NCBI GenBank assembly: GCA_014905635.1
Contig: JABVCE010000004.1
Coordinates: forward strand, 1 to 64,000
Reading direction: 5' to 3'
Source of the DNA: Scenedesmus sp. PABB004
Taxonomy: Eukaryota
Length of the DNA stretch: 64,000 nt
Shown: positions 5,405-31,360 of the stretch, in pieces
Numbering within the stretch: position 1 is the first letter of the stretch
Layout of the letters: every line of letters starts with the position of its first letter
Translations under genes and position numbers: made by a program
Notes under the pieces: model-generated
Seen by the model: the letters and a program-made list of their open reading frames with translations, nothing else
The model's database searches: none
Told to the model about the DNA's origin: nothing

Positions 5405-5489
5405 AGTTGTTGTTGTTACAGGGGGTTTGAGTAGGCCAGGGAATAAGCACTGCTAGTGCCAGGGGAGTACGCGCGAGTACGAGGCCCCC
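5405..5489 (-). mobile_element. Short (about 85 bp) retroposed insertion with TGTAA(CAA)n tail
   Basis: Minus strand ends in TGTAACAACAACAAC; flanked by direct repeat CACGTGA at 5398-5404 and 5490-5496. Confidence 0.55.
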
Positions 5490-7099: not shown

Positions 7100-7138
<39 letters not shown>

Positions 7139-7327: not shown

Positions 7328-7349
7328 CTAGCCCTTCTAGCGCTTAAAG

Positions 7350-7416
7350 CCAAAACCCTAAACCTAAAACCTAAAAACCTAAAAACCTAAAAAACTAAAC
7401 CCTAAAACCTAAAACC
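7350..7416 (+). repeat. Degenerate interstitial telomere-like (CCCTAAA/CCTAAAA) tract
   Basis: aaaaccctaaacctaaaacctaaaaacctaaaaacct... embedded in GC-rich DNA. Confidence 0.85.
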
Positions 7417-7764
7417 GTAGCGCACGGGCCCCGCCCGCGCGGCGCAGCGAGCATCGCGGGCTCCCCTCGTGGGCCAGCCCAGCGGGTGGAGAGGCGTACG
7501 CGTGTAGGCTCTCAGCAGGGGTGCACACTTACATTACAGCTCGCGCCCTCACGCACGCGCGGCATGTACCACTGATCGCCACACGCCGCACAAGCGTTGC
7601 GCGGCACACGGCAGCACATCTTGTGGCCCCTTGCTCAGCCGCGGCGGGGCGGCAGGGCCGCCCGCGTCAGCCGCACGACGCCAGCACGCGCGCGATGAAC
7701 TCCACCGCCGGCGCGTCGGCGAGCGGTGGAGGCGCCCGCGCTAAGCGAAGCCGCCCCCGGCCGC

Positions 7765-8926: not shown

Positions 8927-8955
8927 CGCGCCGCTGCCGGCCGCGGCCCCGGCCG

Positions 8956-9312
8956 CTACTTGCACAGGCCGATGCGCGCGTCCCGCGCCGCCTTGCTGCC
9001 CTGTGGCTTCTGCTGGCGGGGGCGCGCGCGGCGGTGCGCGCCTGACGACGCCGCTGCAAGGGCCGCCGCGCGCACCGCAGCGGCGCTGCCGCGGCCGCGC
9101 ACCTGCGGGTCGCCCTGCACTGCGCCGCCTGGCTGCTGCTGCGCCAGGGCTTGCTGCCGCGTGAGCGCCTCGTACTGCGGCGGCGCGCAGCGGAGCAGAC
9201 AGTTGGCAGCGAGCAGCGGACCCGCCATCCGCCTAGCCGGCTGGAGGCGCTGGCGCACCTCCTCCTTGTCCTCTGGCTTGAGCTCGATGCGGGTGGGCTT
9301 GCGTGGCAGCAT
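8956..9312 (-). CDS. CDC26: Anaphase-promoting complex subunit CDC26 (APC12)
   Basis: MLPRKPTRIELKPEDKEE|YE... N-terminal signature and C-terminal 'RIGL' as in plant CDC26; intron 9258-9175. Confidence 0.88.
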   Translation of the reverse strand: MLPRKPTRIELKPEDKEEVRQRLQPARRMAGPLLAANCLLRCAPPQYEALTRQQALAQQQPGGAVQGDPQVRGRGSAAAVRAAALAAASSGAHRRARPRQQKPQGSKAARDARIGLCK

Positions 9313-9590
9313 CAGACAGCCGCATCAACCGGGTTGCCAGCGCGAGCAGCGGCGGCAGCAGCGGCGGCAGGAGCGGCGGCAGCGACGGCGGCGCAGCGGC
9401 GAGCGCCCGGCGCTGCGGCGGGGGCTAACCGAGACGCGGCGCAGCGCGCGGTAGGCCGGCGGCTAGCCACAGGCTGTGGCCCACAGCATTGGCGCCAGAG
9501 AACCGCCGCCGGTTGACGAGCGGCGGCGCGGAGCACAGCCCGCAGCGCGGGTGTTTTTGACTGTGCGCCCGCGGAAGAAGTCCCGCCAAC

Positions 9591-10857
9591 ATGGAGGCTG
9601 ATCGCCTGCTCGCGGCGGCCCTGCAGGTGCCGCGCGGCGGTTGGCAGCGGCACCGCCGCTGCCGGCGGCAGCGGCAGGCGGTGTCAGGCGGCAGCGCTGC
9701 CGCTTGGCGGCGGTGCGCGCCCCGGCGGCGGTGCTCGTGCCCCAGACACCGCCTGCCCCTGCCCCTGCCCCCGCAGGCCGAGGAGGACGCAGCGGCGGCG
9801 CGGGAGGCGGGCCGGCCGCCGGACGAGCAGGCACGGCTCGTGGCGGAGCTCAACGCCGGCGTGGCCAAGGCGCTGTCTGTGCGTGCGGCCGCTGCGCGCA
9901 GCCGGCTGGCGCTGCCGGCGGCCCGCGCGCTGAGCGCCCCAACACCGGCGGCCTCCGCGCGCCAGGTGGAGGATGCGTCGGCGCGCGCAGCCGCGCTCGA
10001 GCTGATGCAGCTGGCAGAACTGCGCGCCGAGGCGGCGGCCACGGCGGCGCTGCATGCCCGCCTGGGCGAGCCGCTGCGCTGCGGCGAGGGCGACCTGGCG
10101 GTGCAGGGGCTGGCCGCGTGGTTCAAGGCCTCTTTCTTCACCTGGGTGCGCGGGCGGGGGCCGGACCACGGCGCGCGGGCCACAGTGGGGGCCTCCTGCT
10201 GGGGGGGGGGGGGGGGGCGCCGCCGAACCGCCGCCCCCAACGTCAGGTCGACCAGCCGCCGTGCGAGGTGTGCGGCGGCGGCACCACGCACGCCGGCATG
10301 GCGGCGCCCACGCCGCAAGAGGCGGCGCACGGCGCGGGGCGCGTGGAGACCTACCGCTGCACCGTCTGCTCCCAGGCAAGGCCCAGCCACCGCTGCCGCC
10401 CCGCCGGCGCGCCGTGCCGCTGCGGGCTGCGGCGCCTCTCGCTGGCTAACGCGCCGGCGCTGTGCGGCGCGCTGCCCGCAGGTGACGCGCTTCCCGCGCT
10501 ACACACACGCCGTCAAGCTGCTCAGCACGCGCCGCGGCAGGTGCGCGCGGCGTGGCGGCGCGGAGCTGCTGAACGCGCAGGGACCCTCGCGGTTCAGCTG
10601 CCGCGCCGCGCAGGTGCGGCGAATGGGCGCACACGTTCCTGTTGCTGCTGCGCGCGGCGGACTTTGAGGCGCGGCACGTCTCGGACTGCGCCGACCACGT
10701 GTGGTGTGAGTACTGGAGCGACGGGCTCGGGCGCTGGGTGCACGTGGACGCGTGCGAGCGCTCGTGGGATCAGCCGCTGCTCTATGAGGCGGGCTGGGGC
10801 AAGCGCATCGCGCACGCCTTTGCCGCGGGCAGGCACGGCGTCGCGGACGTCACGCGG
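9591..10857 (+). CDS. PNG1: Peptide:N-glycanase (transglutaminase-like core), apparently 3'-truncated
   Basis: WFKASFFTW, CxxC zinc pairs (CEVC, CTVC), RFPRY...TRRGRCGEWA, DHVWCEYWS...WVHVDACE...PLLYEAGWGK, DVTR followed by a GT donor with no evident next exon. Confidence 0.85.
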
Positions 10858-11021
10858 TGCGCGCCGGCTGCCAGGGGGCGCGGCTGGGATGCAGCGTGGC
10901 GGCGGCACAACCGCCGAAGAGCCTAGCAGGTGTCTCCATGTGCCCTGTGGTAGCCTTGCCCTTAGCCTTGTTTGCGTCCATAGAGAGCAAAACGGAAAAC
11001 GTCCCAGTGCTCAGCAAGTAT

Positions 11022-14000
11022 TCAAGGGGTTGCTGCTTGACAAGCATTGTTGACGCATGAAAAGGTTGCGCACTCAGTGGTATACGTGCAGACGTCGCCA
11101 GTCGCCTTGATACCCTACGTAGCAAGAAGAACACGGCATGTTGAGCGATTGGCACAACATACATAAGCTTGCGCAAATGTGACAGCAGCCAACGCGCCTG
11201 TTTACACAAGTAAGAGTTGTCAACTTGGACGTCGCAGTTTTGGCTTGCACAATCGGCATCGTCTTGGCATATCTCATTCAGAGCAGCTAAGCCCTGCGTG
11301 AGGAGCAACTTAGCGGTGGTTTGATGATGCTATTTTGAAACCAACATTATAAACCCTAATCGCAAGTAACCGATGCCCCAAACCGCAGTTATCTAACTAG
11401 CTCAACTTTGTCGAACCCCAAACCCTTAGGGCCTAAACTCATAACCACCCCATAGCAACGCACCGACGCGACGCACTGCGCGTCTGCACAATTTGTAGAG
11501 GTGCAGTTGGCGTTGTCTGTGCAGCTGCCGCCGACGTCCACAACGCCCTGCGCGCGGAGCGGCAGCGGGCGGCATAAGTGCAGTGTGGTGAGGTCGGCGC
11601 ACGTGCACGCCGCATGCCGCGCGCCGGATATGCTGCCGCCCGCAAGGCGCGCGCACTCACCGTCGCATAGCACTTGCCGGCGATGCAGTTGGTGGTGGTG
11701 CAGTTGGCGTTGTCTGTGCAGCTGCCGCCGACGTCCACAACGCCCTGCGCGCGGAGCGGCAGCGGGCGGCATAAGTGCAGTGTGGTGAGGTCGGCGCACG
11801 TGCACGCCGCATGCCGCGCGCCGGATATGCTGCCGCCCGCAAGGCGCGCGCACTCACCGTCGCATAGCACTTGCCGGCGATGCAGTTGGTGGTGGTGCAG
11901 TTGGCGTTGTCTGTGCAGCTGCCGCCGACGTCCACAACGCCCTGCGCGCGGAGCGGCAGCGGGCGGCATAAGTGCAGTGTGGTGAGGTCGGCGCACGTGC
12001 ACGCCGCATGCCGCGCGCCGGATATGCTGCCGCCCGCAAGGCGCGCGCACTCACCGTCGCATAGCACTTGCCGGCGATGCAGTTGGTGGTGGTGCAGTTG
12101 GCGTTGTCTGTGCAGCTGCCGCCGACGTCCACAACGCCCTGCGCGCGGAGCGGCAGCGGGCGGCATAAGTGCAGTGTGGTGAGGTCGGCGCACGTGCACG
12201 CCGCATGCCGCGCGCCGGATATGCTGCCGCCCGCAAGGCGCGCGCACTCACCGTCGCATAGCACTTGCCGGCGATGCAGTTGGTGGTGGTGCAGTTGGCG
12301 TTGTCTGTGCAGCTGCCGCCGACGTCCACAACGCCCTGCGCGCGGAGCGGCAGCGGGCGGCATAAGTGCAGTGTGGTGAGGTCGGCGCACGTGCACGCCG
12401 CATGCCGCGCGCCGGATATGCTGCCGCCCGCAAGGCGCGCGCACTCACCGTCGCATAGCACTTGCCGGCGATGCAGTTGGTGGTGGTGCAGTTGGCGTTG
12501 TCTGTGCAGCTGCCGCCGACGTCCACAACGCCCTGCGCGCGGAGCGGCAGCGGGCGGCATAAGTGCAGTGTGGTGAGGTCGGCGCACGTGCACGCCGCAT
12601 GCCGCGCGCCGGATATGCTGCCGCCCGCAAGGCGCGCGCACTCACCGTCGCATAGCACTTGCCGGCGATGCAGTTGGTGGTGGTGCAGTTGGCGTTGTCT
12701 GTGCAGCTGCCGCCGACGTCCACAACGCCCTGCGCGCGGAGCGGCAGCGGGCGGCATAAGTGCAGTGTGGTGAGGTCGGCGCACGTGCACGCCGCATGCC
12801 GCGCGCCGGATATGCTGCCGCCCGCAAGGCGCGCGCACTCACCGTCGCATAGCACTTGCCGGCGATGCAGTTGGTGGTGGTGCAGTTGGCGTTGTCTGTG
12901 CAGCTGCCGCCGACGTCCACAACGCCCTGCGCGCGGAGCGGCAGCGGGCGGCATAAGTGCAGTGTGGTGAGGTCGGCGCACGTGCACGCCGCATGCCGCG
13001 CGCCGGATATGCTGCCGCCCGCAAGGCGCGCGCACTCACCGTCGCATAGCACTTGCCGGCGATGCAGTTGGTGTTGTTGTTGTTACGCGCAGGCTCAGTC
13101 GGGATTCCCGACTCGGGGCAGGGCAAGAACGAAGGCGTTCTTGGGCGGTACGCTTGGTTAGTTGGTGGTGGTGCAGTTGGCGTTGTCTGTGCAGCTGCCG
13201 CCGACGTCCACAACGCCCTGCGCGCGGAGCGGCAGCGGGCGGCATAAGTGCAGTGTGGTGAGGTCGGCGCACGTGCACGCCGCATGCCGCGCGCCGGATA
13301 TGCTGCCGCCCGCAAGGCGCGCGCACTCACCGTCGCATAGCACTTGCCGGCGATGCAGTTGGTGGTGGTGCAGTTGGCGTTGTCTGTGCAGCTGCCGCCG
13401 ACGTCCACAACGCCCTGCGCGCGGAGCGGCAGCGGGCGGCATAAGTGCAGTGTGGTGAGGTCGGCGCACGTGCACGCCGCATGCCGCGCGCCGGATATGC
13501 TGCCGCCCGCAAGGCGCGCGCACTCACCGTCGCATAGCACTTGCCGGCGATGCAGTTGGTGGTGGTGCAGTTGGCGTTGTCTGTGCAGCTGCCGCCGACG
13601 TCCACAACGCCCTGCGCGCGGAGCGGCAGCGGGCGGCATAAGTGCAGTGTGGTGAGGTCGGCGCACGTGCACGCCGCATGCCGCGCGCCGGATATGCTGC
13701 CGCCCGCAAGGCGCGCGCACTCACCGTCGCATAGCACTTGCCGGCGATGCAGTTGGTGGTGGTGCAGTTGGCGTTGTCTGTGCAGCTGCCGCCGACGTCC
13801 ACAACGCCCTGCGCGCGGAGCGGCAGCGGGCGGCATAAGTGCAGTGTGGTGAGGTCGGCGCACGTGCACGCCGCATGCCGCGCGCCGGATATGCTGCCGC
13901 CCGCAAGGCGCGCGCACTCACCGTCGCATAGCACTTGCCGGCGATGCAGTTGGTGGTGGTGCAGTTGGCGTTGTCTGTGCAGCTGCCGCCGACGTCCACA

Positions 14001-17000
14001 ACGCCCTGCGCGCGGAGCGGCAGCGGGCGGCATAAGTGCAGTGTGGTGAGGTCGGCGCACGTGCACGCCGCATGCCGCGCGCCGGATATGCTGCCGCCCG
14101 CAAGGCGCGCGCACTCACCGTCGCATAGCACTTGCCGGCGATGCAGTTGGTGGTGGTGCAGTTGGCGTTGTCTGTGCAGCTGCCGCCGACGTCCACAACG
14201 CCCTGCGCGCGGAGCGGCAGCGGGCGGCATAAGTGCAGTGTGGTGAGGTCGGCGCACGTGCACGCCGCATGCCGCGCGCCGGATATGCTGCCGCCCGCAA
14301 GGCGCGCGCACTCACCGTCGCATAGCACTTGCCGGCGATGCAGTTGGTGGTGGTGCAGTTGGCGTTGTCTGTGCAGCTGCCGCCGACGTCCACAACGCCC
14401 TGCGCGCGGAGCGGCAGCGGGCGGCATAAGTGCAGTGTGGTGAGGTCGGCGCACGTGCACGCCGCATGCCGCGCGCCGGATATGCTGCCGCCCGCAAGGC
14501 GCGCGCACTCACCGTCGCATAGCACTTGCCGGCGATGCAGTTGGTGGTGGTGCAGTTGGCGTTGTCTGTGCAGCTGCCGCCGACGTCCACAACGCCCTGC
14601 GCGCGGAGCGGCAGCGGGCGGCATAAGTGCAGTGTGGTGAGGTCGGCGCACGTGCACGCCGCATGCCGCGCGCCGGATATGCTGCCGCCCGCAAGGCGCG
14701 CGCACTCACCGTCGCATAGCACTTGCCGGCGATGCAGTTGGTGGTGGTGCAGTTGGCGTTGTCTGTGCAGCTGCCGCCGACGTCCACAACGCCCTGCGCG
14801 CGGAGCGGCAGCGGGCGGCATAAGTGCAGTGTGGTGAGGTCGGCGCACGTGCACGCCGCATGCCGCGCGCCGGATATGCTGCCGCCCGCAAGGCGCGCGC
14901 ACTCACCGTCGCATAGCACTTGCCGGCGATGCAGTTGGTGGTGGTGCAGTTGGCGTTGTCTGTGCAGCTGCCGCCGACGTCCACAACGCCCTGCGCGCGG
15001 AGCGGCAGCGGGCGGCATAAGTGCAGTGTGGTGAGGTCGGCGCACGTGCACGCCGCATGCCGCGCGCCGGATATGCTGCCGCCCGCAAGGCGCGCGCACT
15101 CACCGTCGCATAGCACTTGCCGGCGATGCAGTTGGTGGTGGTGCAGTTGGCGTTGTCTGTGCAGCTGCCGCCGACGTCCACAACGCCCTGCGCGCGGAGC
15201 GGCAGCGGGCGGCATAAGTGCAGTGTGGTGAGGTCGGCGCACGTGCACGCCGCATGCCGCGCGCCGGATATGCTGCCGCCCGCAAGGCGCGCGCACTCAC
15301 CGTCGCATAGCACTTGCCGGCGATGCAGTTGGTGGTGGTGCAGTTGGCGTTGTCTGTGCAGCTGCCGCCGACGTCCACAACGCCCTGCGCGCGGAGCGGC
15401 AGCGGGCGGCATAAGTGCAGTGTGGTGAGGTCGGCGCACGTGCACGCCGCATGCCGCGCGCCGGATATGCTGCCGCCCGCAAGGCGCGCGCACTCACCGT
15501 CGCATAGCACTTGCCGGCGATGCAGTTGGTGGTGGTGCAGTTGGCGTTGTCTGTGCAGCTGCCGCCGACGTCCACAACGCCCTGCGCGCGGAGCGGCAGC
15601 GGGCGGCATAAGCGCGGTGTGGTGAGGTCGGCGCACGTGCACGCCGCATGCCCCGCGCCGGATATGCTGCCGCCCGCAAGGCACGCGCACTCACCGTCGC
15701 ATAGCACTTGCCGGCGATGCAGTTGGTGTTGTTGTTGTTACGCGCAGGCTCAGTCGGGATTCCCGACTCGGGGCAGGGCAAGAACGAAGGCGTTCTTGGG
15801 CGGTACGCTTGGTTAGTTGGTGGTGGTGCAGTTGGCGTTGTCTGTGCAGCTGCCGCCGACGTCCACAACGCCCTGCGCGCGGAGCGGCAGCGGGCGGCAT
15901 AAGTGCAGTGTGGTGAGGTCGGCGCACGTGCACGCCGCATGCCGCGCGCCGGATATGCTGCCGCCCGCAAGGCGCGCGCACTCACCGTCGCATAGCACTT
16001 GCCGGCGATGCAGTTGGTGGTGGTGCAGTTGGCGTTGTCTGTGCAGCTGCCGCCGACGTCCACAACGCCCTGCGCGCGGAGCGGCAGCGGGCGGCATAAG
16101 TGCAGTGTGGTGAGGTCGGCGCACGTGCACGCCGCATGCCGCGCGCCGGATATGCTGCCGCCCGCAAGGCGCGCGCACTCACCGTCGCATAGCACTTGCC
16201 GGCGATGCAGTTGGTGGTGGTGCAGTTGGCGTTGTCTGTGCAGCTGCCGCCGACGTCCACAACGCCCTGCGCGCGGAGCGGCAGCGGGCGGCATAAGTGC
16301 AGTGTGGTGAGGTCGGCGCACGTGCACGCCGCATGCCGCGCGCCGGATATGCTGCCGCCCGCAAGGCGCGCGCACTCACCGTCGCATAGCACTTGCCGGC
16401 GATGCAGTTGGTGGTGGTGCAGTTGGCGTTGTCTGTGCAGCTGCCGCCGACGTCCACAACGCCCTGCGCGCGGAGCGGCAGCGGGCGGCATAAGTGCAGT
16501 GTGGTGAGGTCGGCGCACGTGCACGCCGCATGCCGCGCGCCGGATATGCTGCCGCCCGCAAGGCGCGCGCACTCACCGTCGCATAGCACTTGCCGGCGAT
16601 GCAGTTGGTGGTGGTGCAGTTGGCGTTGTCTGTGCAGCTGCCGCCGACGTCCACAACGCCCTGCGCGCGGAGCGGCAGCGGGCGGCATAAGTGCAGTGTG
16701 GTGAGGTCGGCGCACGTGCACGCCGCATGCCGCGCGCCGGATATGCTGCCGCCCGCAAGGCGCGCGCACTCACCGTCGCATAGCACTTGCCGGCGATGCA
16801 GTTGGTGGTGGTGCAGTTGGCGTTGTCTGTGCAGCTGCCGCCGACGTCCACAACGCCCTGCGCGCGGAGCGGCAGCGGGCGGCATAAGTGCAGTGTGGTG
16901 AGGTCGGCGCACGTGCACGCCGCATGCCGCGCGCCGGATATGCTGCCGCCCGCAAGGCGCGCGCACTCACCGTCGCATAGCACTTGCCGGCGATGCAGTT

Positions 17001-20000
17001 GGTGGTGGTGCAGTTGGCGTTGTCTGTGCAGCTGCCGCCGACGTCCACAACGCCCTGCGCGCGGAGCGGCAGCGGGCGGCATAAGTGCAGTGTGGTGAGG
17101 TCGGCGCACGTGCACGCCGCATGCCGCGCGCCGGATATGCTGCCGCCCGCAAGGCGCGCGCACTCACCGTCGCATAGCACTTGCCGGCGATGCAGTTGGT
17201 GTTGTTGTTGTTACGCGCAGGCTCAGTCGGGATTCCCGACTCGGGGCAGGGCAAGAACGAAGGCGTTCTTGGGCGGTACGCTTGGTTAGTTGGTGGTGGT
17301 GCAGTTGGCGTTGTCTGTGCAGCTGCCGCCGACGTCCACAACGCCCTGCGCGCGGAGCGGCAGCGGGCGGCATAAGTGCAGTGTGGTGAGGTCGGCGCAC
17401 GTGCACGCCGCATGCCGCGCGCCGGATATGCTGCCGCCCGCAAGGCGCGCGCACTCACCGTCGCATAGCACTTGCCGGCGATGCAGTTGGTGGTGGTGCA
17501 GTTGGCGTTGTCTGTGCAGCTGCCGCCGACGTCCACAACGCCCTGCGCGCGGAGCGGCAGCGGGCGGCATAAGTGCAGTGTGGTGAGGTCGGCGCACGTG
17601 CACGCCGCATGCCGCGCGCCGGATATGCTGCCGCCCGCAAGGCGCGCGCACTCACCGTCGCATAGCACTTGCCGGCGATGCAGTTGGTGGTGGTGCAGTT
17701 GGCGTTGTCTGTGCAGCTGCCGCCGACGTCCACAACGCCCTGCGCGCGGAGCGGCAGCGGGCGGCATAAGTGCAGTGTGGTGAGGTCGGCGCACGTGCAC
17801 GCCGCATGCCGCGCGCCGGATATGCTGCCGCCCGCAAGGCGCGCGCACTCACCGTCGCATAGCACTTGCCGGCGATGCAGTTGGTGGTGGTGCAGTTGGC
17901 GTTGTCTGTGCAGCTGCCGCCGACGTCCACAACGCCCTGCGCGCGGAGCGGCAGCGGGCGGCATAAGTGCAGTGTGGTGAGGTCGGCGCACGTGCACGCC
18001 GCATGCCGCGCGCCGGATATGCTGCCGCCCGCAAGGCGCGCGCACTCACCGTCGCATAGCACTTGCCGGCGATGCAGTTGGTGGTGGTGCAGTTGGCGTT
18101 GTCTGTGCAGCTGCCGCCGACGTCCACAACGCCCTGCGCGCGGAGCGGCAGCGGGCGGCATAAGTGCAGTGTGGTGAGGTCGGCGCACGTGCACGCCGCA
18201 TGCCGCGCGCCGGATATGCTGCCGCCCGCAAGGCGCGCGCACTCACCGTCGCATAGCACTTGCCGGCGATGCAGTTGGTGGTGGTGCAGTTGGCGTTGTC
18301 TGTGCAGCTGCCGCCGACGTCCACAACGCCCTGCGCGCGGAGCGGCAGCGGGCGGCATAAGTGCAGTGTGGTGAGGTCGGCGCACGTGCACGCCGCATGC
18401 CGCGCGCCGGATATGCTGCCGCCCGCAAGGCGCGCGCACTCACCGTCGCATAGCACTTGCCGGCGATGCAGTTGGTGGTGGTGCAGTTGGCGTTGTCTGT
18501 GCAGCTGCCGCCGACGTCCACAACGCCCTGCGCGTGGAGCGGCAGCGGGCGGCATAAGCGCGGTGTGGTGAGGTCGGCGCACGTGCACGCCGCATGCCCC
18601 GCGCCGGATATGCTGCCGCCCGCAAGGCGCGCGCACTCACCGTCGCATAGCACTTGCCGGCGATGCAGTTGGTGTTGTTGTTGTTACGCGCAGGCTCAGT
18701 CGGGATTCCCGACTCGGGGCAGGGCAAGAACGAAGGCGTTCTTGGGCGGTACGCTTGGTTAGTTGGTGGTGGTGCAGTTGGCGTTGTCTGTGCAGCTGCC
18801 GCCGACGTCCACAACGCCCTGCGCGCGGAGCGGCAGCGGGCGGCATAAGTGCAGTGTGGTGAGGTCGGCGCACGTGCACGCCGCATGCCGCGCGCCGGAT
18901 ATGCTGCCGCCCGCAAGGCGCGCGCACTCACCGTCGCATAGCACTTGCCGGCGATGCAGTTGGTGGTGGTGCAGTTGGCGTTGTCTGTGCAGCTGCCGCC
19001 GACGTCCACAACGCCCTGCGCGCGGAGCGGCAGCGGGCGGCATAAGTGCAGTGTGGTGAGGTCGGCGCACGTGCACGCCGCATGCCGCGCGCCGGATATG
19101 CTGCCGCCCGCAAGGCGCGCGCACTCACCGTCGCATAGCACTTGCCGGCGATGCAGTTGGTGGTGGTGCAGTTGGCGTTGTCTGTGCAGCTGCCGCCGAC
19201 GTCCACAACGCCCTGCGCGCGGAGCGGCAGCGGGCGGCATAAGTGCAGTGTGGTGAGGTCGGCGCACGTGCACGCCGCATGCCGCGCGCCGGATATGCTG
19301 CCGCCCGCAAGGCGCGCGCACTCACCGTCGCATAGCACTTGCCGGCGATGCAGTTGGTGGTGGTGCAGTTGGCGTTGTCTGTGCAGCTGCCGCCGACGTC
19401 CACAACGCCCTGCGCGCGGAGCGGCAGCGGGCGGCATAAGTGCAGTGTGGTGAGGTCGGCGCACGTGCACGCCGCATGCCGCGCGCCGGATATGCTGCCG
19501 CCCGCAAGGCGCGCGCACTCACCGTCGCATAGCACTTGCCGGCGATGCAGTTGGTGGTGGTGCAGTTGGCGTTGTCTGTGCAGCTGCCGCCGACGTCCAC
19601 AACGCCCTGCGCGCGGAGCGGCAGCGGGCGGCATAAGTGCAGTGTGGTGAGGTCGGCGCACGTGCACGCCGCATGCCGCGCGCCGGATATGCTGCCGCCC
19701 GCAAGGCGCGCGCACTCACCGTCGCATAGCACTTGCCGGCGATGCAGTTGGTGGTGGTGCAGTTGGCGTTGTCTGTGCAGCTGCCGCCGACGTCCACAAC
19801 GCCCTGCGCGCGGAGCGGCAGCGGGCGGCATAAGTGCAGTGTGGTGAGGTCGGCGCACGTGCACGCCGCATGCCGCGCGCCGGATATGCTGCCGCCCGCA
19901 AGGCGCGCGCACTCACCGTCGCATAGCACTTGCCGGCGATGCAGTTGGTGGTGGTGCAGTTGGCGTTGTCTGTGCAGCTGCCGCCGACGTCCACAACGCC

Positions 20001-23000
20001 CTGCGCGCGGAGCGGCAGCGGGCGGCATAAGTGCAGTGTGGTGAGGTCGGCGCACGTGCACGCCGCATGCCGCGCGCCGGATATGCTGCCGCCCGCAAGG
20101 CGCGCGCACTCACCGTCGCATAGCACTTGCCGGCGATGCAGTTGGTGGTGGTGCAGTTGGCGTTGTCTGTGCAGCTGCCGCCGACGTCCACAACGCCCTG
20201 CGCGCGGAGCGGCAGCGGGCGGCATAAGCGCGGTGTGGTGAGGTCGGCGCACGTGCACGCCGCATGCCCCGCGCCGGATATGCTGCCGCCCGCAAGGCAC
20301 GCGCACTCACCGTCGCATAGCACTTGCCGGCGATGCAGTTGGTGTTGTTGTTGTTACGCGCAGGCTCAGTCGGGATTCCCGACTCGGGGCAGGGCAAGAA
20401 CGAAGGCGTTCTTGGGCGGTACGCTTGGTTAGTTGGTGGTGGTGCAGTTGGCGTTGTCTGTGCAGCTGCCGCCGACGTCCACAACGCCCTGCGCGCGGAG
20501 CGGCAGCGGGCGGCATAAGTGCAGTGTGGTGAGGTCGGCGCACGTGCACGCCGCATGCCGCGCGCCGGATATGCTGCCGCCCGCAAGGCGCGCGCACTCA
20601 CCGTCGCATAGCACTTGCCGGCGATGCAGTTGGTGGTGGTGCAGTTGGCGTTGTCTGTGCAGCTGCCGCCGACGTCCACAACGCCCTGCGCGCGGAGCGG
20701 CAGCGGGCGGCATAAGTGCAGTGTGGTGAGGTCGGCGCACGTGCACGCCGCATGCCGCGCGCCGGATATGCTGCCGCCCGCAAGGCGCGCGCACTCACCG
20801 TCGCATAGCACTTGCCGGCGATGCAGTTGGTGGTGGTGCAGTTGGCGTTGTCTGTGCAGCTGCCGCCGACGTCCACAACGCCCTGCGCGCGGAGCGGCAG
20901 CGGGCGGCATAAGTGCAGTGTGGTGAGGTCGGCGCACGTGCACGCCGCATGCCGCGCGCCGGATATGCTGCCGCCCGCAAGGCGCGCGCACTCACCGTCG
21001 CATAGCACTTGCCGGCGATGCAGTTGGTGGTGGTGCAGTTGGCGTTGTCTGTGCAGCTGCCGCCGACGTCCACAACGCCCTGCGCGCGGAGCGGCAGCGG
21101 GCGGCATAAGTGCAGTGTGGTGAGGTCGGCGCACGTGCACGCCGCATGCCGCGCGCCGGATATGCTGCCGCCCGCAAGGCGCGCGCACTCACCGTCGCAT
21201 AGCACTTGCCGGCGATGCAGTTGGTGGTGGTGCAGTTGGCGTTGTCTGTGCAGCTGCCGCCGACGTCCACAACGCCCTGCGCGCGGAGCGGCAGCGGGCG
21301 GCATAAGCGCGGTGTGGTGAGGTCGGCGCACGTGCACGCCGCATGCCCCGCGCCGGATATGCTGCCGCCCGCAAGGCACGCGCACTCACCGTCGCATAGC
21401 ACTTGCCGGCGATGCAGTTGGTGTTGTTGTTGTTACGCGCAGGCTCAGTCGGGATTCCCGACTCGGGGCAGGGCAAGAACGAAGGCGTTCTTGGGCGGTA
21501 CGCTTGGTTAGTTGGTGGTGGTGCAGTTGGCGTTGTCTGTGCAGCTGCCGCCGACGTCCACAACGCCCTGCGCGCGGAGCGGCAGCGGGCGGCATAAGTG
21601 CAGTGTGGTGAGGTCGGCGCACGTGCACGCCGCATGCCGCGCGCCGGATATGCTGCCGCCCGCAAGGCGCGCGCACTCACCGTCGCATAGCACTTGCCGG
21701 CGATGCAGTTGGTGGTGGTGCAGTTGGCGTTGTCTGTGCAGCTGCCGCCGACGTCCACAACGCCCTGCGCGCGGAGCGGCAGCGGGCGGCATAAGTGCAG
21801 TGTGGTGAGGTCGGCGCACGTGCACGCCGCATGCCGCGCGCCGGATATGCTGCCGCCCGCAAGGCGCGCGCACTCACCGTCGCATAGCACTTGCCGGCGA
21901 TGCAGTTGGTGGTGGTGCAGTTGGCGTTGTCTGTGCAGCTGCCGCCGACGTCCACAACGCCCTGCGCGCGGAGCGGCAGCGGGCGGCATAAGTGCAGTGT
22001 GGTGAGGTCGGCGCACGTGCACGCCGCATGCCGCGCGCCGGATATGCTGCCGCCCGCAAGGCGCGCGCACTCACCGTCGCATAGCACTTGCCGGCGATGC
22101 AGTTGGTGGTGGTGCAGTTGGCGTTGTCTGTGCAGCTGCCGCCGACGTCCACAACGCCCTGCGCGCGGAGCGGCAGCGGGCGGCATAAGTGCAGTGTGGT
22201 GAGGTCGGCGCACGTGCACGCCGCATGCCGCGCGCCGGATATGCTGCCGCCCGCAAGGCGCGCGCACTCACCGTCGCATAGCACTTGCCGGCGATGCAGT
22301 TGGTGGTGGTGCAGTTGGCGTTGTCTGTGCAGCTGCCGCCGACGTCCACAACGCCCTGCGCGCGGAGCGGCAGCGGGCGGCATAAGTGCAGTGTGGTGAG
22401 GTCGGCGCACGTGCACGCCGCATGCCGCGCGCCGGATATGCTGCCGCCCGCAAGGCGCGCGCACTCACCGTCGCATAGCACTTGCCGGCGATGCAGTTGG
22501 TGGTGGTGCAGTTGGCGTTGTCTGTGCAGCTGCCGCCGACGTCCACAACGCCCTGCGCGCGGAGCGGCAGCGGGCGGCATAAGCGCGGTGTGGTGAGGTC
22601 GGCGCACGTGCACGCCGCATGCCGCGCGCCGGATATGCTGCCGCCCGCAAGGCACGCGCACTCACCGTCGCATAGCACTTGCCGGCGATGCAGTTGGTGT
22701 TGTTGTTGTTACGCGCAGGCTCAGTCGGGATTCCCGACTCGGGGCAGGGCAAGAACGAAGGCGTTCTTGGGCGGTACGCTTGGTTAGTTGGTGGTGGTGC
22801 AGTTGGCGTTGTCTGTGCAGCTGCCGCCGACGTCCACAACGCCCTGCGCGCGGAGCGGCAGCGGGCGGCATAAGTGCAGTGTGGTGAGGTCGGCGCACGT
22901 GCACGCCGCATGCCGCGCGCCGGATATGCTGCCGCCCGCAAGGCGCGCGCACTCACCGTCGCATAGCACTTGCCGGCGATGCAGTTGGTGGTGGTGCAGT

Positions 23001-26000
23001 TGGCGTTGTCTGTGCAGCTGCCGCCGACGTCCACAACGCCCTGCGCGCGGAGCGGCAGCGGGCGGCATAAGTTCAGTGTGGTGAGGTCGGCGCACGTGCA
23101 CGCCGCATGCCGCGCGCCGGATATGCTGCCGCCCGCAAGGCGCGCGCACTCACCGTCGCATAGCACTTGCCGGCGATGCAGTTGGTGGTGGTGCAGTTGG
23201 CGTTGTCTGTGCAGCTGCCGCCGACGTCCACAACGCCCTGCGCGCGGAGCGGCAGCGGGCGGCATAAGTGCAGTGTGGTGAGGTCGGCGCACGTGCACGC
23301 CGCATGCCGCGCGCCGGATATGCTGCCGCCCGCAAGGCGCGCGCACTCACCGTCGCATAGCACTTGCCGGCGATGCAGTTGGTGTTGTTGTTGTTACGCG
23401 CAGGCTCAGTCGGGATTCCCGACTCGGGGCAGGGCAAGAACGAAGGCGTTCTTGGCGGTACGCTTGGTTAGTTGGTGGTGGTGCAGTTGGCGTTGTCTGT
23501 GCAGCTGCCGCCGACGTCCACAACGCCCTGCGCGCGGAGCGGCAGCGGGCGGCATAAGTGCAGTGTGGTGAGGTCGGCGCACGTGCACGCCGCATGCCGC
23601 GCGCCGGATATGCTGCCGCCCGCAAGGCGCGCGCACTCACCGTCGCATAGCACTTGCCGGCGATGCAGTTGGTGGTGGTGCAGTTGGCGTTGTCTGTGCA
23701 GCTGCCGCCGACGTCCACAACGCCCTGCGCGCGGAGCGGCAGCGGGCGGCATAAGTGCAGTGTGGTGAGGTCGGCGCACGTGCACGCCGCATGCCGCGCG
23801 CCGGATATGCTGCCGCCCGCAAGGCGCGCGCACTCACCGTCGCATAGCACTTGCCGGCGATGCAGTTGGTGGTGGTGCAGTTGGCGTTGTCTGTGCAGCT
23901 GCCGCCGACGTCCACAACGCCCTGCGCGCGGAGCGGCAGCGGGCGGCATAAGTGCAGTGTGGTGAGGTCGGCGCACGTGCACGCCGCATGCCGCGCGCCG
24001 GATATGCTGCCGCCCGCAAGGCGCGCGCACTCACCGTCGCATAGCACTTGCCGGCGATGCAGTTGGTGGTGGTGCAGTTGGCGTTGTCTGTGCAGCTGCC
24101 GCCGACGTCCACAACGCCCTGCGCGCGGAGCGGCAGCGGGCGGCATAAGCGCGGTGTGGTGAGGTCGGCGCACGTGCACGCCGCATGCCGCGCGCCGGAT
24201 ATGCTGCCGCCCGCAAGGCACGCGCACTCACCGTCGCATAGCACTTGCCGGCGATGCAGTTGGTGTTGTTGTTGTTACGCGCAGGCTCAGTCGGGATTCC
24301 CGACTCGGGGCAGGGCAAGAACGAAGGCGTTCTTGGGCGGTACGCTTGGTTAGTTGGTGGTGGTGCAGTTGGCGTTGTCTGTGCAGCTGCCGCCGACGTC
24401 CACAACGCCCTGCGCGCGGAGCGGCAGCGGGCGGCATAAGTGCAGTGTGGTGAGGTCGGCGCACGTGCACGCCGCATGCCGCGCGCCGGATATGCTGCCG
24501 CCCGCAAGGCGCGCGCACTCACCGTCGCATAGCACTTGCCGGCGATGCAGTTGGTGGTGGTGCAGTTGGCGTTGTCTGTGCAGCTGCCGCCGACGTCCAC
24601 AACGCCCTGCGCGCGGAGCGGCAGCGGGCGGCATAAGTTCAGTGTGGTGAGGTCGGCGCACGTGCACGCCGCATGCCGCGCGCCGGATATGCTGCCGCCC
24701 GCAAGGCGCGCGCACTCACCGTCGCATAGCACTTGCCGGCGATGCAGTTGGTGGTGGTGCAGTTGGCGTTGTCTGTGCAGCTGCCGCCGACGTCCACAAC
24801 GCCCTGCGCGCGGAGCGGCAGCGGGCGGCATAAGTGCAGTGTGGTGAGGTCGGCGCACGTGCACGCCGCATGCCGCGCGCCGGATATGCTGCCGCCCGCA
24901 AGGCGCGCGCACTCACCGTCGCATAGCACTTGCCGGCGATGCAGTTGGTGGTGGTGCAGTTGGCGTTGTCTGTGCAGCTGCCGCCGACGTCCACAACGCC
25001 CTGCGCGCGGAGCGGCAGCGGGCGGCATAAGTGCAGTGTGGTGAGGTCGGCGCACGTGCACGCCGCATGCCGCGCGCCGGATATGCTGCCGCCCGCAAGG
25101 CGCGCGCACTCACCGTCGCATAGCACTTGCCGGCGATGCAGTTGGTGGTGGTGCAGTTGGCGTTGTCTGTGCAGCTGCCGCCGACGTCCACAACGCCCTG
25201 CGCGCGGAGCGGCAGCGGGCGGCATAAGCGCGGTGTGGTGAGGTCGGCGCACGTGCACGCCGCATGCCCCGCGCCGGATATGCTGCCGCCCGCAAGGCAC
25301 GCGCACTCACCGTCGCATAGCACTTGCCGGCGATGCAGTTGGTGTTGTTGTTGTTACGCGCAGGCTCAGTCGGGATTCCCGACTCGGGGCAGGGCAAGAA
25401 CGAAGGCGTTCTTGGGCGGTACGCTTGGTTAGTTGGTGGTGGTGCAGTTGGCGTTGTCTGTGCAGCTGCCGCCGACGTCCACAACGCCCTGCGCGCGGAG
25501 CGGCAGCGGGCGGCATAAGTGCAGTGTGGTGAGGTCGGCGCACGTGCACGCCGCATGCCGCGCGCCGGATATGCTGCCGCCCGCAAGGCGCGCGCACTCA
25601 CCGTCGCATAGCACTTGCCGGCGATGCAGTTGGTGGTGGTGCAGTTGGCGTTGTCTGTGCAGCTGCCGCCGACGTCCACAACGCCCTGCGCGCGGAGCGG
25701 CAGCGGGCGGCATAAGTGCAGTGTGGTGAGGTCGGCGCACGTGCACGCCGCATGCCGCGCGCCGGATATGCTGCCGCCCGCAAGGCGCGCGCACTCACCG
25801 TCGCATAGCACTTGCCGGCGATGCAGTTGGTGGTGGTGCAGTTGGCGTTGTCTGTGCAGCTGCCGCCGACGTCCACAACGCCCTGCGCGCGGAGCGGCAG
25901 CGGGCGGCATAAGTGCAGTGTGGTGAGGTCGGCGCACGTGCACGCCGCATGCCGCGCGCCGGATATGCTGCCGCCCGCAAGGCGCGCGCACTCACCGTCG

Positions 26001-27233
26001 CATAGCACTTGCCGGCGATGCAGTTGGTGGTGGTGCAGTTGGCGTTGTCTGTGCAGCTGCCGCCGACGTCCACAACGCCCTGCGCGCGGAGCGGCAGCGG
26101 GCGGCATAAGTGCAGTGTGGTGAGGTCGGCGCACGTGCACGCCGCATGCCGCGCGCCGGATATGCTGCCGCCCGCAAGGCGCGCGCACTCACCGTCGCAT
26201 AGCACTTGCCGGCGATGCAGTTGGTGGTGGTGCAGTTGGCGTTGTCTGTGCAGCTGCCGCCGACGTCCACAACGCCCTGCGCGCGGAGCGGCAGCGGGCG
26301 GCATAAGCGCGGTGTGGTGAGGTCGGCGCACGTGCACGCCGCATGCCCCGCGCCGGATATGCTGCCGCCCGCAAGGCACGCGCACTCACCGTCGCATAGC
26401 ACTTGCCGGCGATGCAGTTGGTGTTGTTGTTGTTACGCGCAGGCTCAGTCGGGATTCCCGACTCGGGGCAGGGCAAGAACGAAGGCGTTCTTGGGCGGTA
26501 CGCTTGGTTAGTTGGTGGTGGTGCAGTTGGCGTTGTCTGTGCAGCTGCCGCCGACGTCCACAACGCCCTGCGCGCGGAGCGGCAGCGGGCGGCATAAGTG
26601 CAGTGTGGTGAGGTCGGCGCACGTGCACGCCGCATGCCGCGCGCCGGATATGCTGCCGCCCGCAAGGCGCGCGCACTCACCGTCGCATAGCACTTGCCGG
26701 CGATGCAGTTGGTGGTGGTGCAGTTGGCGTTGTCTGTGCAGCTGCCGCCGACGTCCACAACGCCCTGCGCGCGGAGCGGCAGCGGGCGGCATAAGCGCGG
26801 TGTGGTGAGGTCGGCGCACGTGCACGCCGCATGCCCCGCGCCGGATATGCTGCCGCCCGCAAGGCACGCGCACTCACCGTCGCATAGCACTTGCCGGCGA
26901 TGCAGTTGGTGTTGTTGTTGTTACGCGCAGGCTCAGTCGGGATTCCCGACTCGGGGCAGGGCAAGAACGAAGGCGTTCTTGGGCGGTACGCTTGGTTAGT
27001 TGGTGGTGGTGCAGTTGGCGTTGTCTGTGCAGCTGCCGCCGACGTCCACAACGCCCTGCGCGCGGAGCGGCAGCGGGCGGCATAAGTGCAGTGTGGTGAG
27101 GTCGGCGCACGTGCACGCCGCATGCCGCGCGCCGGATATGCTGCCGCCCGCAAGGCGCGCGCACTCACCGTCGCATAGCACTTGCCGGCGATGCAGTTGG
27201 TGGTGGTGCAGTTGGCGTTGTCTGTGCAGCTGC
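11022..27233 (-). CDS. One-module-per-exon Cys-rich repeat protein gene; 5' end missing and several exons disrupted
   Basis: Repeated 84-bp phase-0 exon GVVDVGGSCTDNANCTTTNCIAGKCYAT (CAG|...|GTGAGT). It is followed by divergent exons 11547-11464, 11293-11198 (GLAALNEICQDDADCASQNC...C) and 11114-11022 (GIKATGDVCTYTTECATFSCVNNACQAATP*). Confidence 0.75.
11500..27233. repeat. Tandem array of 197-bp units (84-bp exon + 113-bp intron): 73 complete repeated exons plus one partial, 12 of them in 291-bp insertion-bearing units
   Basis: Periodicity 197; 27169-11661 = 73x197 + 11x94 + 93. Confidence 0.97.
13074..13159 (-). mobile_element. 86-bp retroposed insertion with (CAA)n tail and 8-bp TSD; same insertion repeated at about 15729, 17202, 18675, 20345, 21424, 22700, 23385, 24266, 25345, 26424 and 26912
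   Basis: TSD AGTTGGTG at 13066-13073 and 13160-13167; minus-strand 3' end CGTAACAACAACAA; two 8-bp inverted repeats inside. Confidence 0.8.
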
Positions 27234-27316
27234 CCTAAACCTAAAACTAAAAACCGAAAAAACCTAAAACCCTACAACCTAAAACCTATAAAACCTAAAA
27301 TCCAAAACCTAACCCC
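27233..27316 (+). repeat. Degenerate interstitial telomere-like tract terminating the array mid-exon
   Basis: ...cagctg|ccctaaacctaaaactaaaaaccgaaaaaacctaaaaccct... Confidence 0.85.
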
Positions 27317-27709: not shown

Positions 27710-30700
27710 CTACACCGCTCCGCCGCCGCCGCCGCCGCTGCTCCCGTCCACGCCGCCCTCTCGCGCGCCGCCGCGCGCAGCCGCTGCCACGCCCGCGGCC
27801 GCGGCGGCGGCGCTCAGGCCGAGCAGCAGGTCAGCGTCGCCGCTGCTGCTGCTGCCCGCGGCGCCGCCCGGCGGTGCGGCGCTGCCGCCGCCCGCCGCCG
27901 CCGCGAGCAGCTCCGCGGCGAGCGCCGCGCCCTCTGGCATGCCCACCATGCCCAGCATGTCGGCCAGCTCCGCGGCGCGCTCCGCCGGCGACGCGAGGTG
28001 CCGGAAGCTGGTCGCCACGCGCCCGTCCACGCCGGTGGCCTTCACGACCTGGACGTGGTGCCACGCGGCCGCCGCCACCTGCGAGCCGCGCCAGCGCGGC
28101 GGCGGCGCTGGTCACGGTGCGCACGGGTGGCCCCCGAGCCCGAAGAGCCCCACGCCCGCGCCCCCGCGCCCCCGCGCCCGCGCGCCCGCGCGCCCGCGCC
28201 CCCGCGCCCGCGCCCCGGGCGCAGAGAGCAGCAGGCCCACCTGCGGCGTGTGCGTGACCGCCAGCACCTGGCACGCGGCCGCGCCCGCGTCGCCCCGCCC
28301 CGCGCCGCCGACGAGGCTGCGCAGCAGCCGGCCCACAGGCTCGCCGAGGCGGCTGCCGATGCCGGCGTCGAGCTCGTCCAGCACCAGCACGGGCGGGCCC
28401 AGCCGCAGAGCGCCGTGCGCCGTGCCGCCGTCGGCGTTGCTGCTGCCGGCGCCCCGGGCCGCCTCCGCCGCTGCGAGGGGCGCTGCCTTGAGCGCGAGCA
28501 TGACGCGCGCCGCCTCGCCGCCGGACGCCGTGTCGGCGAGCGGGCGCAGCGGCTCGGCGGGGCCGGGCGCGAGCAGGAACGTGACGGCGTCCAGGCCACG
28601 CGCGCCGAGCCGGAAGAGGCCGCGCTCCTCGCCGGCCGCGCCGCTGCTGCCGCCTGCCTCGCCCTCGCCCGCCGCGCCATCGGCGTCGCCGCCCCGCGCG
28701 CCCGCCAAGACCAGCCGCGGCTGCGCAGACGTGGGCACGCTCACTGCGCGCGAGGAGGGGCCCACCTGGCGCACGTGCGGGGCGGGTCGCAGGACGTGTG
28801 AGCCAGGCCGCACGGGGTTACGGGACCAAGCGTCGGGCGCTGCCGGCACGCCGCCGGGCGCGCGACAGGTGGCCGCAGTGCTCTGCCGCGCGAGCGCCGC
28901 CTGTCGCCGGTCGCCTGCCTGCCCGCCAGCCCTGCGCGCTGCGGCCACCACGGCCCGCCCCACCTGCTCCTCCTTGGGTCCCGCGCGGCTCCACGACAGC
29001 TGCACGGCAAACTTGCTGGCACCCATGGCGAGCGACCCCAGCACGCCCTGCACGGCGTCGGCCAGCGCCGCGCCCGCCGCGGTGCGGGCCGCCGACAGCT
29101 GCAGCGCGACGTCGGTCGCCTCGGCCAGCAGCGCGGCCGCCTCCGCGCGCCAGCCCTTCGCCTGACCTGCGGGCAGCGCGGGCGGCAGCGCGGGTTGAAG
29201 CGGTGCTGGCGGAGAGGGCGCACGGGGCGCACGTGTGCGCCGCCCCATGCACCGCCGGCGCCACCGCAGCCCCGCCGCTGTCGCCCCGCCGCGTCGGCCC
29301 GCGCGGCGCACCCAGGTTGTCATGGAAGGCCTCCAGCGCGGCAGCCCAGCCGCAGCACGCCTCAAGCAGCTCCGCGGTGCCGCGCACGCGGAAGCGCCGG
29401 CACAGCTTTTCCAGCAGCTCCAGCCGCGCCGCGGCCTCGGCCGCCTCGGCGGGGGAGAAGCCGGCCACGCCGGCGTATGCAGAAAGCTGCGGCGGCGACG
29501 GCGAGCGTGTCAGCGCCGCGCGCGCGGTCGAGCAGCAGGGCGCCGCGCGCGCCGCGGCAGGAGCAGGCGATGCCGCGCCCTGCACACCTGCGCCGCTGCT
29601 TCGGTCAGGCCCTCGCCCACGCCGTCCAGCTCGTTCAGAGCGGCTTGCAGCGCAGCCACGGCGCGCGCGCCGCTCGCCGCCTCGCCACCGTCCTCCTCGT
29701 CCTCCTCCTCGTCCTCCTCGCCGCCTGCCTCGTCCTCCTCCTGCTCGCCCTCGTCTGCGGCGGCGCTCCGCCACCGCTGCCGCGCCGCTGCGCGCTCCTG
29801 CGCCAGCAAGCGCTGCTGCTGCTCCTCCGCCGCGAGCACGCCCCGCAGCTGCCCGACAACCAAGCGCAGCCCCTCAAGCAGCCCCGCGCCGCCGCCGCTG
29901 CCGGCCGCTGCGCCGCTGCCATCGCCCGAGATGCCTGCGCTGGCCGCAGCCGCCGCCTCGAGGCAGCCGCGCCGTGATTCGAGCGCTGCCAGACGGCGCC
30001 GCAGGGTCACCTCCTCGCCCGCAGTGATGCCGGCGCGAGTGATGAGCTCGACGCGACGCTGCAGCGCGGCGCGCTCGGCCTCGTCGCCCAGCGCATCCAC
30101 GTCGGCCAGCGCCGCCTCCAGACGTGCCAGGCGTGCCACCAGGCCGGACAGGTGCGCCGCGAGGTCGCTGGTGCCTGCGCCGGCGTGGCAGAGGCCCTTG
30201 GTGCGGGGACTGCCCGCACGCCGCGTGCCGCGCGACGCGCAGCTGCTGCGCGCGGCGCGCCGCGCAGCAGGCGCGACCCCGGCGGCGCACCGGCGACCCT
30301 GTCCAGCAGGTCGAGCTGCGCGGCGCCGTCCCTGAGCGCCAGGCTCGCGTGCTGGCCATTGACGTCGACGAGCAGCGCCCCCAGGCTGCGCAGCACGCGC
30401 AGGCTGCTGGGCACGCCGTTTATGCTCACGCGGCTGCGCGTGCCAGCGCCGCCCGGCGAGCTGCTCGCGTCGGACGCCGGCGCCGGCACGCGGCATATCT
30501 GCGGGCGGCGGCGTCAGGCGCGCAGGCAGGCGGGCGCACGGCCGCCTGTGAGCTGCGAGTGCACACGCGCGCGCCTTGAAGCTCGGGCGCTGCGCGCCCG
30601 GCGGCCGGCCCACCTCCCGCCGGATGGTCAGCTGCTGGCCGCCACCAGACCCGCCGCCGCCCGGCAGCGCCCGCGCCGGCAGGCCCAGGTCGGCCAGCAG

Positions 30701-31360
30701 CGCGGCCGCGGCCTCCGCGGTGGTAGGGTCCAGCCACCACGTGCCCTGAACCAGCGCCGCGTCGGCGGGGGCGCGCACGCAGGCCGCGTCTGCGGGCGCG
30801 CCGAGCAGCTGGCCGAGGCCGTCGAGCAGGACGCTCTTGCCCGCGCCGCTGCTGCCGCTGACGACGTTCAGCCCTGGCGCAAAGCGCGCCGTCGCAGAGT
30901 CGAATACCACAAAGCCCTGCAGCGCCACCTCCTGCGCGCGAGCGGGCGGCGCCGGCTCAGCGCGCCGCGCGCACGCCCCGCCCCCGCGCGCCCCGCCTTC
31001 CCTCTCCGCCCTCGGCGCGCCTGCAGGAAGGTCAGGCTCTGGTGCTCAGGCGGCGGGGGCGGCGGCGGCTCCGCGCACGCGGCTGGCGCGCCGGCGCTGC
31101 CGCCGGCGACCGACGGCGCCGCTGCCGGGCCAGCGCACGCCGCCCTGCTGCCGCGGCGCACCCATCGCTGCCGCGCGGCGAGCGCGAGCCGGGCGCCACC
31201 TGCGTCGCAGCAAGGGCGCTGCGTCAGGCTCCTCGGCAGGCGCTCGCCGCCCGCGCTCCGGGGGCGCCGGCGCCAGCGCCGCCGCCGCTGCACCGCGCGC
31301 ACCTCCGCTGCTGCCGGCCGCGGCGCGTCCAGCTGAGCCCGCTGGCCTGCCCACCAGCAT
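27710..31360 (-). CDS. RECN: RecN-like SMC-family DNA repair ATPase, probably organelle-targeted
   Basis: Walker A GSSGAGKS, 'INGVP...LVDVNGQH', signature ASGGEAARVMLALK, Walker B LVLDELDAGIG, 'QVLAVTHTPQVAA', ER..ELA.MLG; multiple introns; N-terminal extension. Confidence 0.9.

Follow-up and report, generated by a model that had tools for sequence, protein, structure and literature searches.

An exon–intron cassette of a headless, stop-interrupted gene, probably amplified into a young subtelomeric satellite in Scenedesmus sp. PABB004

Introduction

How should a tandem array of protein-coding exons, each accompanied by its intron, be read: as a gene or as a satellite? The question is raised by a 64,000-nucleotide stretch of Scenedesmus sp. 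PABB004 (GenBank assembly GCA_014905635.1, contig JABVCE010000004.1, positions 1 to 64,000 of the forward strand; hereafter the window). In it, 75 copies of an exon on the minus strand run into a diverged gene tail with a stop codon. An original prediction made from the letters of the window took the locus for the gene of a length-variable extracellular protein. In our view, to which we assign a probability of roughly 0.7, the locus is instead a headless pseudogene, interrupted by stops, whose exon–intron cassette has multiplied to form a young satellite in a subtelomeric region.

Structure of the array

Cutting the minus strand at each donor gave 74 introns and 73 full intron+exon units. Read from its 5′ end, the array consists of a truncated exon, the 73 units (61 with intact exons and 12 with an insertion), a final intron and a hybrid exon. 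Tandem Repeats Finder reported a 197 bp repeat from about 11500 to 27234, in five rows. The standard 197 bp unit comprises a 113 nt intron (GTGAGT...GCAG) and an 84 nt exon in phase 0, the translation of which is GVVDVGGSCTDNANCTTTNCIAGKCYAT; the array exons are thus phase-0 symmetric, and each encodes one 28-residue protein module. A CTCAC motif about 45 nt upstream of the acceptor of the array introns is branch-like and may act as the branch site. In base composition the unit is GC-rich, and several of its readings are open over long distances. These observations bear out the proposal that the unit is an exon+intron cassette of a protein gene encoding an extracellular-type four-Cys module.

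The statement that each unit is 197 bp long does not hold, as 12 of the 73 full units measure 290–291 bp and carry a 94 bp insertion in the exon. A further 50 are identical, and 11 have one to four single-nucleotide polymorphisms (SNPs) in the intron. All six variable single-base sites are intronic (naive P = 0.034), as had been claimed, but the companion claim that the exons are invariant fails because of the 12 insertions. Since four of the six sites co-occur as one linked variant, we regard the intron bias as weak evidence of selection. Changes private to one unit amount to one SNP and one indel across all 73. The unit order along the array is irregular, with seven unit types, linked variants and recurring multi-unit blocks.

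The insertion is flanked by a 7 bp target duplication, ends in an AAC tail and introduces an in-frame TAA after 19 codons. It is found in units 1, 3, 8, 13, 17, 20, 26, 31, 39, 46, 53 and 66, and the longest run of stop-free exons is 12. The intron that precedes each insertion exon matches the reference intron without a difference, and the donors are as at the intact exons. Under default splicing, no open reading frame passes through the array. The working protein of the original prediction would therefore meet a stop in its first full exon and in 11 more, all with normal splice sites.

Five dispersed matches to the insertion occur on four other contigs (C77, C27 with two, C14 and C4); they share 70–190 bp of its 3′ end and have an AAC tail and differing 5′ lengths. 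The simple-repeat tail, the target duplication and the dispersed copies with variable 5′ ends fit the 5′-truncated end of a retroelement lacking long terminal repeats (non-LTR type), a class suggested by this anatomy. No longer copy of the AAC-tailed element was seen in the five loci retrieved. All 12 insertions of the window share one base that differs both from the sister copy on contig C34 (see below) and from the dispersed copies, and therefore all derive from one copy. We also note that the two copies on C27, at 30113 and 38637, lie within an 8.5 kb near-identical tandem duplication. The window holds other (AAC)n-tailed sequences preceded by TGTAA at 5406–5420 and 49487–49710, the latter a 123 bp near-tandem pair, which possibly represent further short retroelement-end families.

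Ends of the gene

At its 5′ end the gene is broken. The truncated first exon is fused, with a 2 nt microhomology, to a degenerate tract of telomere-like repeats, and the AG that precedes the exon comes from this tract and is in phase 0 by chance. None of eight upstream ATG frames (three in 500 bp of the window and five in 1200 bp of C34) was signal-peptide-like in a crude hydrophobicity test; their maximum was at most 0.92, compared with 2.5–3.3 in seven of 16 homologues chosen by inspection as secreted. A broken end attached to telomere-like repeats, with no signal-peptide-like start above it, is a second obstacle to a working protein. A missing 5′ exon or a paralogue, which the original prediction proposed to seek in the genome, did not appear either: searches with the unit DNA, the tail DNA, the proteins of three exons, the EB family and a homologue, which score the best candidates only and cover an assembly that may be incomplete, found neither a parent gene nor a 5′ half.

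The 3′ end is better preserved. The original prediction described three divergent four-Cys exons of similar pattern ending in a stop at 11022. The tail and the stop are confirmed, while the middle exon departs from the pattern (C-x5-C-x4-C-x9-C) and needs a GC donor. The first Gly and all four Cys residues are kept in all four exon types, namely the array exon and the three 3′ exons, and the hybrid exon at 11464–11547 marks the edge of homogenization. The GC content of the tail is 47–53%, compared with 78–79% in the flanks; the low-GC stretch spans 11022–11463, and its first intron has scattered telomere-like words. Comparison of the tail region with that of C34 revealed six differences, five of them intronic and the sixth an amino-acid change. 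That no TGTAA follows the stop at 11022 was weighed as evidence of decay and set aside, as the window has only 15 TGTAA on both strands together and the upstream neighbouring gene also lacks one.

Sister loci and subtelomeric setting

Matches to the locus were found on three of 80 contigs, namely that of the window (C35), C34 and C52; these counts are lower bounds. On C34 an 11.7 kb flank is 99.1% identical to that of the window and leads to the same telomere junction, with about 400 bp shared upstream of it. Between flank and junction C34 has four exon copies (truncated, insertion, intact and hybrid) compared with 75 in the window, which supports the expectation of an unstable copy number. 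The first full exon of C34 carries a stop as well. Outside the block shared by C34 and C35 the continuing sequence of each contig is single-copy; C34 was consequently rejected as an allelic haplotig, and because the sequences past the shared block are single-copy on each contig we treat the two as separate chromosome arms and not as alleles.

The third contig, C52 (34.9 kb), begins with AAACCCT telomere repeats, followed by a 14.4 kb tandem duplication of the subtelomeric block. It matches window positions 1–11700 at 99.8% and ends within the array after seven intact units, one unit with the insertion and at least eight more units, in the order of the window. To judge by these matches, C52 is probably the left end of the chromosome to which the window belongs, left unjoined in the assembly; the array, reached at about 31.3 kb on C52, would then lie about 31 kb from a telomere. 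The repeat is thus probably present on about two chromosome arms and is long on one of them.

The insertion is present both on C34 and in the window and is therefore older than the duplication that produced the two. If every unit were as old as that split, about 20 SNPs would be expected in the array; one private SNP and one private indel are observed, although polishing could lower the SNP count. Because the 5′ junction and the insertion are common to C34 and the window, while C34 has only four exon copies, the expansion followed the damage. The simplest history is an increase from about four copies to 75 after the gene had been truncated and interrupted.

The locus is subtelomeric and lies within a mosaic of captured fragments. 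On the far side of the gene tail, a block copied from the end of contig C21 carries a truncated copy of a peptide:N-glycanase-like gene, which stands tail to tail with the Cys gene; the intact gene lies at C21 497756–501120, about 3 kb from the C21 telomere. Across the window and 127 kb retrieved from 13 loci, degenerate telomere tracts are confined to the two block junctions and to true ends. Our reading is that they were once chromosome ends, or are scars of repair, to which fragments were added, and the two at 7352–7416 and 27235–27312, both oriented as the true left telomere, may record successive former chromosome ends. Telomere repeats inserted at repaired breaks are described in mammals (PMC7215372), and non-terminal telomere arrays beside subtelomeric repeats in Chlamydomonas schloesseri (PMC8287924). 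The telomere type, base composition and intron style of the sequence would by themselves suggest a GC-rich green alga as its host.

Assembled length of the array

To gauge whether the assembled length is real we turned to contigs from four public DNA runs, which collapse the array to a loop. A closed 197 bp loop with zero differences is present in three of the four, and a 159 bp piece in the fourth. In run X2 the loop has a depth of 40.1, compared with 2.2–2.6 for flank contigs; in run X1 its depth is 4.1, while two flank pieces of read length have 5, and depth there gives no support. Contig depth is not copy number, and the runs may not be independent of the assembled sample. Much of the stretch compared, which excluded the insertion and the 5′ junction, is uncovered in the four runs, and the gene tail is found in two of them. 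Eight public runs were listed, none of them of RNA, which says nothing either way about expression. Taken together with the assembled order of the units, gross over-expansion by the assembly looks unlikely.

The module and its relatives

A profile of the four exons matched 16 proteins at E ≤ 0.001 among 1.84 billion. All 16 have tandem G-x2-C-x5-C-x4-C-x4-C-like repeats, and several have a hydrophobic N-terminus. At E ≤ 0.01, eight of the 16 match EB (PF01683) and three match DUF7107 (PF23416). Two of the window exons scored 19 and 16.5 bits against EB, for which the cut-off is 24.3, the module covering half of the model at 19 bits; the other two had no EB match. The Atlas returned EB, Dickkopf_N and DUF7107 clusters with scores of at most 0.86, which serve as a lead only. 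A word-based protein search with one exon and 12 codons read from the intron, a weak query, gave no close relative among its 10 candidates, and seven matches to solved structures (best E 0.16) included none that was significant. In the genome itself, a pattern of acceptor, Gly and four spaced Cys residues had 196 matches, compared with 10 for a reversed control; among the 100 of 196 listed, those outside the locus appeared by eye to be (TGC)n runs or unrelated sequence. Distant four-Cys modules are seen as weak matches in other Cys-rich genes, at C24:1695589–1695885 and C2:309629–309742.

On this evidence the module appears to be of a widespread extracellular four-Cys repeat type that is EB/DUF7107-like. 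The homologues suggest that the ancestral protein was most likely secreted or at the cell surface, with small two-disulfide repeats.

Interpretation

The history that we favour would begin with a gene of phase-0, one-module exons, an anatomy that is still visible, for a Cys-repeat protein whose homologues point to secretion. The 3′ part of this gene would have joined a former chromosome end, with its first exon cut at the 2 nt microhomology to the telomere repeat; the junction is there to be seen, while the mechanism is our proposal. Before or after this event, a 5′-truncated end, presumably of non-LTR type in view of its tail and target duplication, would have entered one exon and created the stop. 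The block would then have been copied between the arms represented by C34 and C35, as their shared sequence attests. On C35, unequal exchange or slippage could finally have raised the number of cassettes to 75, by single units and by multi-unit blocks with stop units included; the recurring blocks in the unit order fit unequal exchange. No extracellular protein would be made, as default splicing would lead to a stop in the first full exon. Among the traits of green-algal subtelomeric tandem repeats, we find a tandem array near a chromosome end, multi-unit duplications within the array and exchange between arms; presence at many chromosome ends is not observed, matches being on three of 80 contigs as a lower bound.

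Several points weigh against a dead gene. The 61 intact exons and the two tail exons are undamaged, as are their splice sites, and the differences fall mainly in introns both within the array (six of six sites) and between the C34 and window tails (five of six). An ATG at 27413, an in-phase GT at 27377 and the in-phase AG of the tract would on paper allow a chimeric first exon. The parent gene could have been missed, and consensus polishing may have homogenized the array and hidden SNPs. The insertions of the window have, moreover, lost a poly(A)-signal-like TGTAA that C34 and the dispersed copies retain. TGTAA is the main poly(A) signal of Chlamydomonas (PMC4025486). Its loss is what selection for read-through would predict, yet it is a single base change. 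In an array of such recent origin, none of these features requires selection.

The upstream ATG, donor and acceptor, the intron-biased SNPs and the lost TGTAA, together with the symmetric phase-0 exons, the intact tail and its stop, could also be taken to indicate a live, length-variable gene of up to about 65 modules. Such a gene would start upstream, use the telomere-derived acceptor and either skip its 12 stop exons or bypass the stops through cryptic acceptors, for which two in-phase AG sites inside the insertion are available. We consider this unlikely. Insertion exons and intact exons do not differ in their splice sites; both internal acceptors are GAG, a rare acceptor type; a signal peptide is absent from the candidate first exons, so that a disulfide module would stay in the cytosol; and the first full exon of C34 also carries a stop. 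If transcripts did skip the stop exons, they would pose a striking splicing problem. It is distinctly unlikely that the telomere scar itself rebuilt the gene, by way of the tract acceptor, a first exon derived from the spacer and the skipping of 12 exons whose splice sites equal those of the 61 kept. Were this so, the loss of TGTAA would let transcription cross the array, and the outcome would be a telomere-rescued gene with a protein of at most about 1,800 residues, its length determined by splicing, or else a decay switch by design.

Faults of assembly offer another way out, and we judge each of two such explanations to be very unlikely. The gene could be intact in the cell, with its 5′ half absent from the assembly or mis-joined at the telomere-like tract. 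Simple repeats such as this tract are common mis-join points, and the region was assembled redundantly, as the overlap of C52 with the window indicates. However, the identical junction with about 400 bp upstream was assembled separately on C34, with variants of its own, and the stop-carrying exons would still be a problem. Alternatively, the true array could have few units, like C34, as the 50 identical units and the unremarkable loop depth in run X1 might suggest. This is opposed by the irregular order of seven unit types with linked variants and by C52, which repeats the first seven intact units, one insertion unit and at least eight units more; the zero-difference loop in three of four runs and its depth in run X2 are suggestive in the same direction, within the limits on depth given above. 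Still more doubtful is a dead protein gene kept for a non-coding role, in subtelomeric heterochromatin or as a spliced non-coding RNA. In Chlamydomonas, subtelomeric arrays carry methylation and have spliced non-coding transcripts at their borders, but Sultan arrays occupy 27 of 34 Chlamydomonas ends (PMC8287924), whereas the present repeat is on three contigs, probably two arms, and is long on one. That an ordinary satellite should resemble exon and intron by chance, as its GC-rich unit with several open readings might allow, has next to no likelihood: the acceptor, the phase, the Gly and the spacing of the Cys residues are conserved in four different exons, which close with a stop, and the module matches natural repeat proteins. 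The diverged tail exons refute this reading in substance. A pseudogene turned satellite thus remains the reading that we prefer.

Features and neighbouring sequence

The features of the locus are collected in Table 1. Upstream of the spacer stands a gene that we take, from its Walker motifs, to encode a RecN-like SMC ATPase; its last exon had no Pfam match, and its stop at 27710 lies 476 bp from the first exon copy. On the other side, window positions 1–5252 (plus strand) hold the 3′ portion of a large gene that is Cys-rich and has DUF11 domains (E 8e-28) and a 261 bp coding repeat at 3837–4375; copies of this part occur on C34 and, twice, on C52. A nearly perfect (CCG)180 run is present at 42951–43491.

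Table 1. Coordinates of features at the locus, in window positions.
Feature	Position	Strand	Remarks
Degenerate telomere tract, second	7352..7416		Close to the opposite edge of the block from C21
Block copied from the end of contig C21	7533..10888	plus	86-92% identity
Peptide:N-glycanase-like gene, 3′-truncated	9591..10888	plus	Breaks inside an intron at 10888
Last exon	11022..11114	minus	TGA stop at 11022
GC-AG intron	11115..11197	minus	After the middle tail exon; GC donor required
Middle tail exon	11198..11293	minus	96 nt, C-x5-C-x4-C-x9-C, ~47% GC
Hybrid exon	11464..11547	minus	First 48 nt array-like, remainder diverged
Tandem array, 75 exon copies	11464..27234	minus	15.8 kb; by unit splitting and repeat finding
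GT-AG intron (example)	11548..11660	minus	113 nt, GTGAGT donor, GCAG acceptor
Intact exon (example)	11661..11744	minus	84 nt, 28-residue C-x5-C-x4-C-x4-C module with NCT sequon
Insertion, first full exon	26908..27001	minus	94 bp, putative 3′ end of an (AAC)n-tailed dispersed element
Insertion, other 11 copies (starts)	26420, 25341, 24262, 23381, 22696, 21420, 20341, 18671, 17198, 15725, 13070		
First exon, 5′-truncated	27169..27234	minus	66 nt, without its first 18 nt
Degenerate telomere-repeat tract (TTTAGGG-type)	27235..27312		Oriented as the true left telomere is; gene broken here at its 5′ end
Spacer common to window and C34	27313..27636		324 bp, three minus-strand ATGs
RecN-like SMC ATPase gene (presumed)	27710..30920	minus	Upstream neighbour; start approximate

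Comparison with known systems

At the level of the protein, the module resembles EB, DUF7107 and Dickkopf_N-like repeats in the tandem four-Cys arrangement of the 16 profile matches. It differs from EB in lying below the curated cut-off (19 of 24.3 bits), in covering half of the model and in that no close relative came out of the word-based search.

Both ingredients of the locus, exon–intron arrays and algal subtelomeric repeats, have precedents. The SmPoMuc genes of Schistosoma mansoni contain a tandem exon with flanking introns, in units of about 1 kb that number up to 20 and undergo concerted evolution, and spider silk and Coccidioides SOWgp are cited alongside them as tandem exon–intron units under concerted evolution (PMC2576457). 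Near-identical tandem exon–intron units are common to SmPoMuc and the present locus, and SmPoMuc also has truncated and pseudogene members; SmPoMuc is, however, expressed, with repeat-number variation in complementary DNA, while here the unit is 197 bp, with 75 copies, no 5′ end and 12 stops. In Tetrahymena, leucine-rich-repeat (LRR) genes with 90 bp exons form exon/intron arrays of the same length and phase, the youngest of them near subtelomeres (PMC6564038). They too have one protein repeat per exon, and a 3′ tail from a non-LTR element is found in association with them, but they number thousands of genes in phase 2, many of them functional, and the element lies next to the units; here a single locus pair in phase 0 has the element end inside an exon. 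Coding copy-number variation of human LPA kringle IV-2 (KIV-2) likewise proceeds by whole exon–intron units, of 5.6 kb and 1–40 per allele (PMC11462820, PMC6314250), in a gene that is complete and expressed and has a unit about 28 times longer. The locus is built like these expressed genes (SmPoMuc, LPA KIV-2 and the Tetrahymena LRR genes), but it has neither their open frame nor a 5′ exon.

If our reading is correct, the locus is a clean snapshot of a satellite born from a protein-coding exon+intron cassette, in which a diverged tail and a four-copy sister are still present, as is a retroelement marker that places the expansion later than the damage. With its marked array, it can serve to measure how units turn over at an algal subtelomere. 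It also illustrates a trap for annotation, as flawless exons and splice sites do not, in a young array, count as evidence of function.

In behaviour the locus resembles the species-specific tandem arrays near the chromosome ends of green algae, namely Sultan, Subtile, Suber and Subrecs (PMC8287924). No paper describing a subtelomeric satellite with the exon+intron of a dead gene as its unit was found in the part of the literature covered, which is not proof of novelty. Subtile has a unit of about 190 bp and variants with an unrelated 146 nt insert, Suber has coding-derived (HNH) homology, and arrays of the kind to which Sultan, Subtile and Suber belong share with the present one en bloc duplication, movement between arms and adjoining non-terminal or degenerate telomere tracts (PMC8287924). 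No relation in sequence is expected, and in the parts of that article on which we draw no unit is described as a spliceosomal exon and intron (PMC8287924). The array described here differs from them further in occupying about two arms and in that the tail of the parent gene and the four-copy sister state are still visible beside it.

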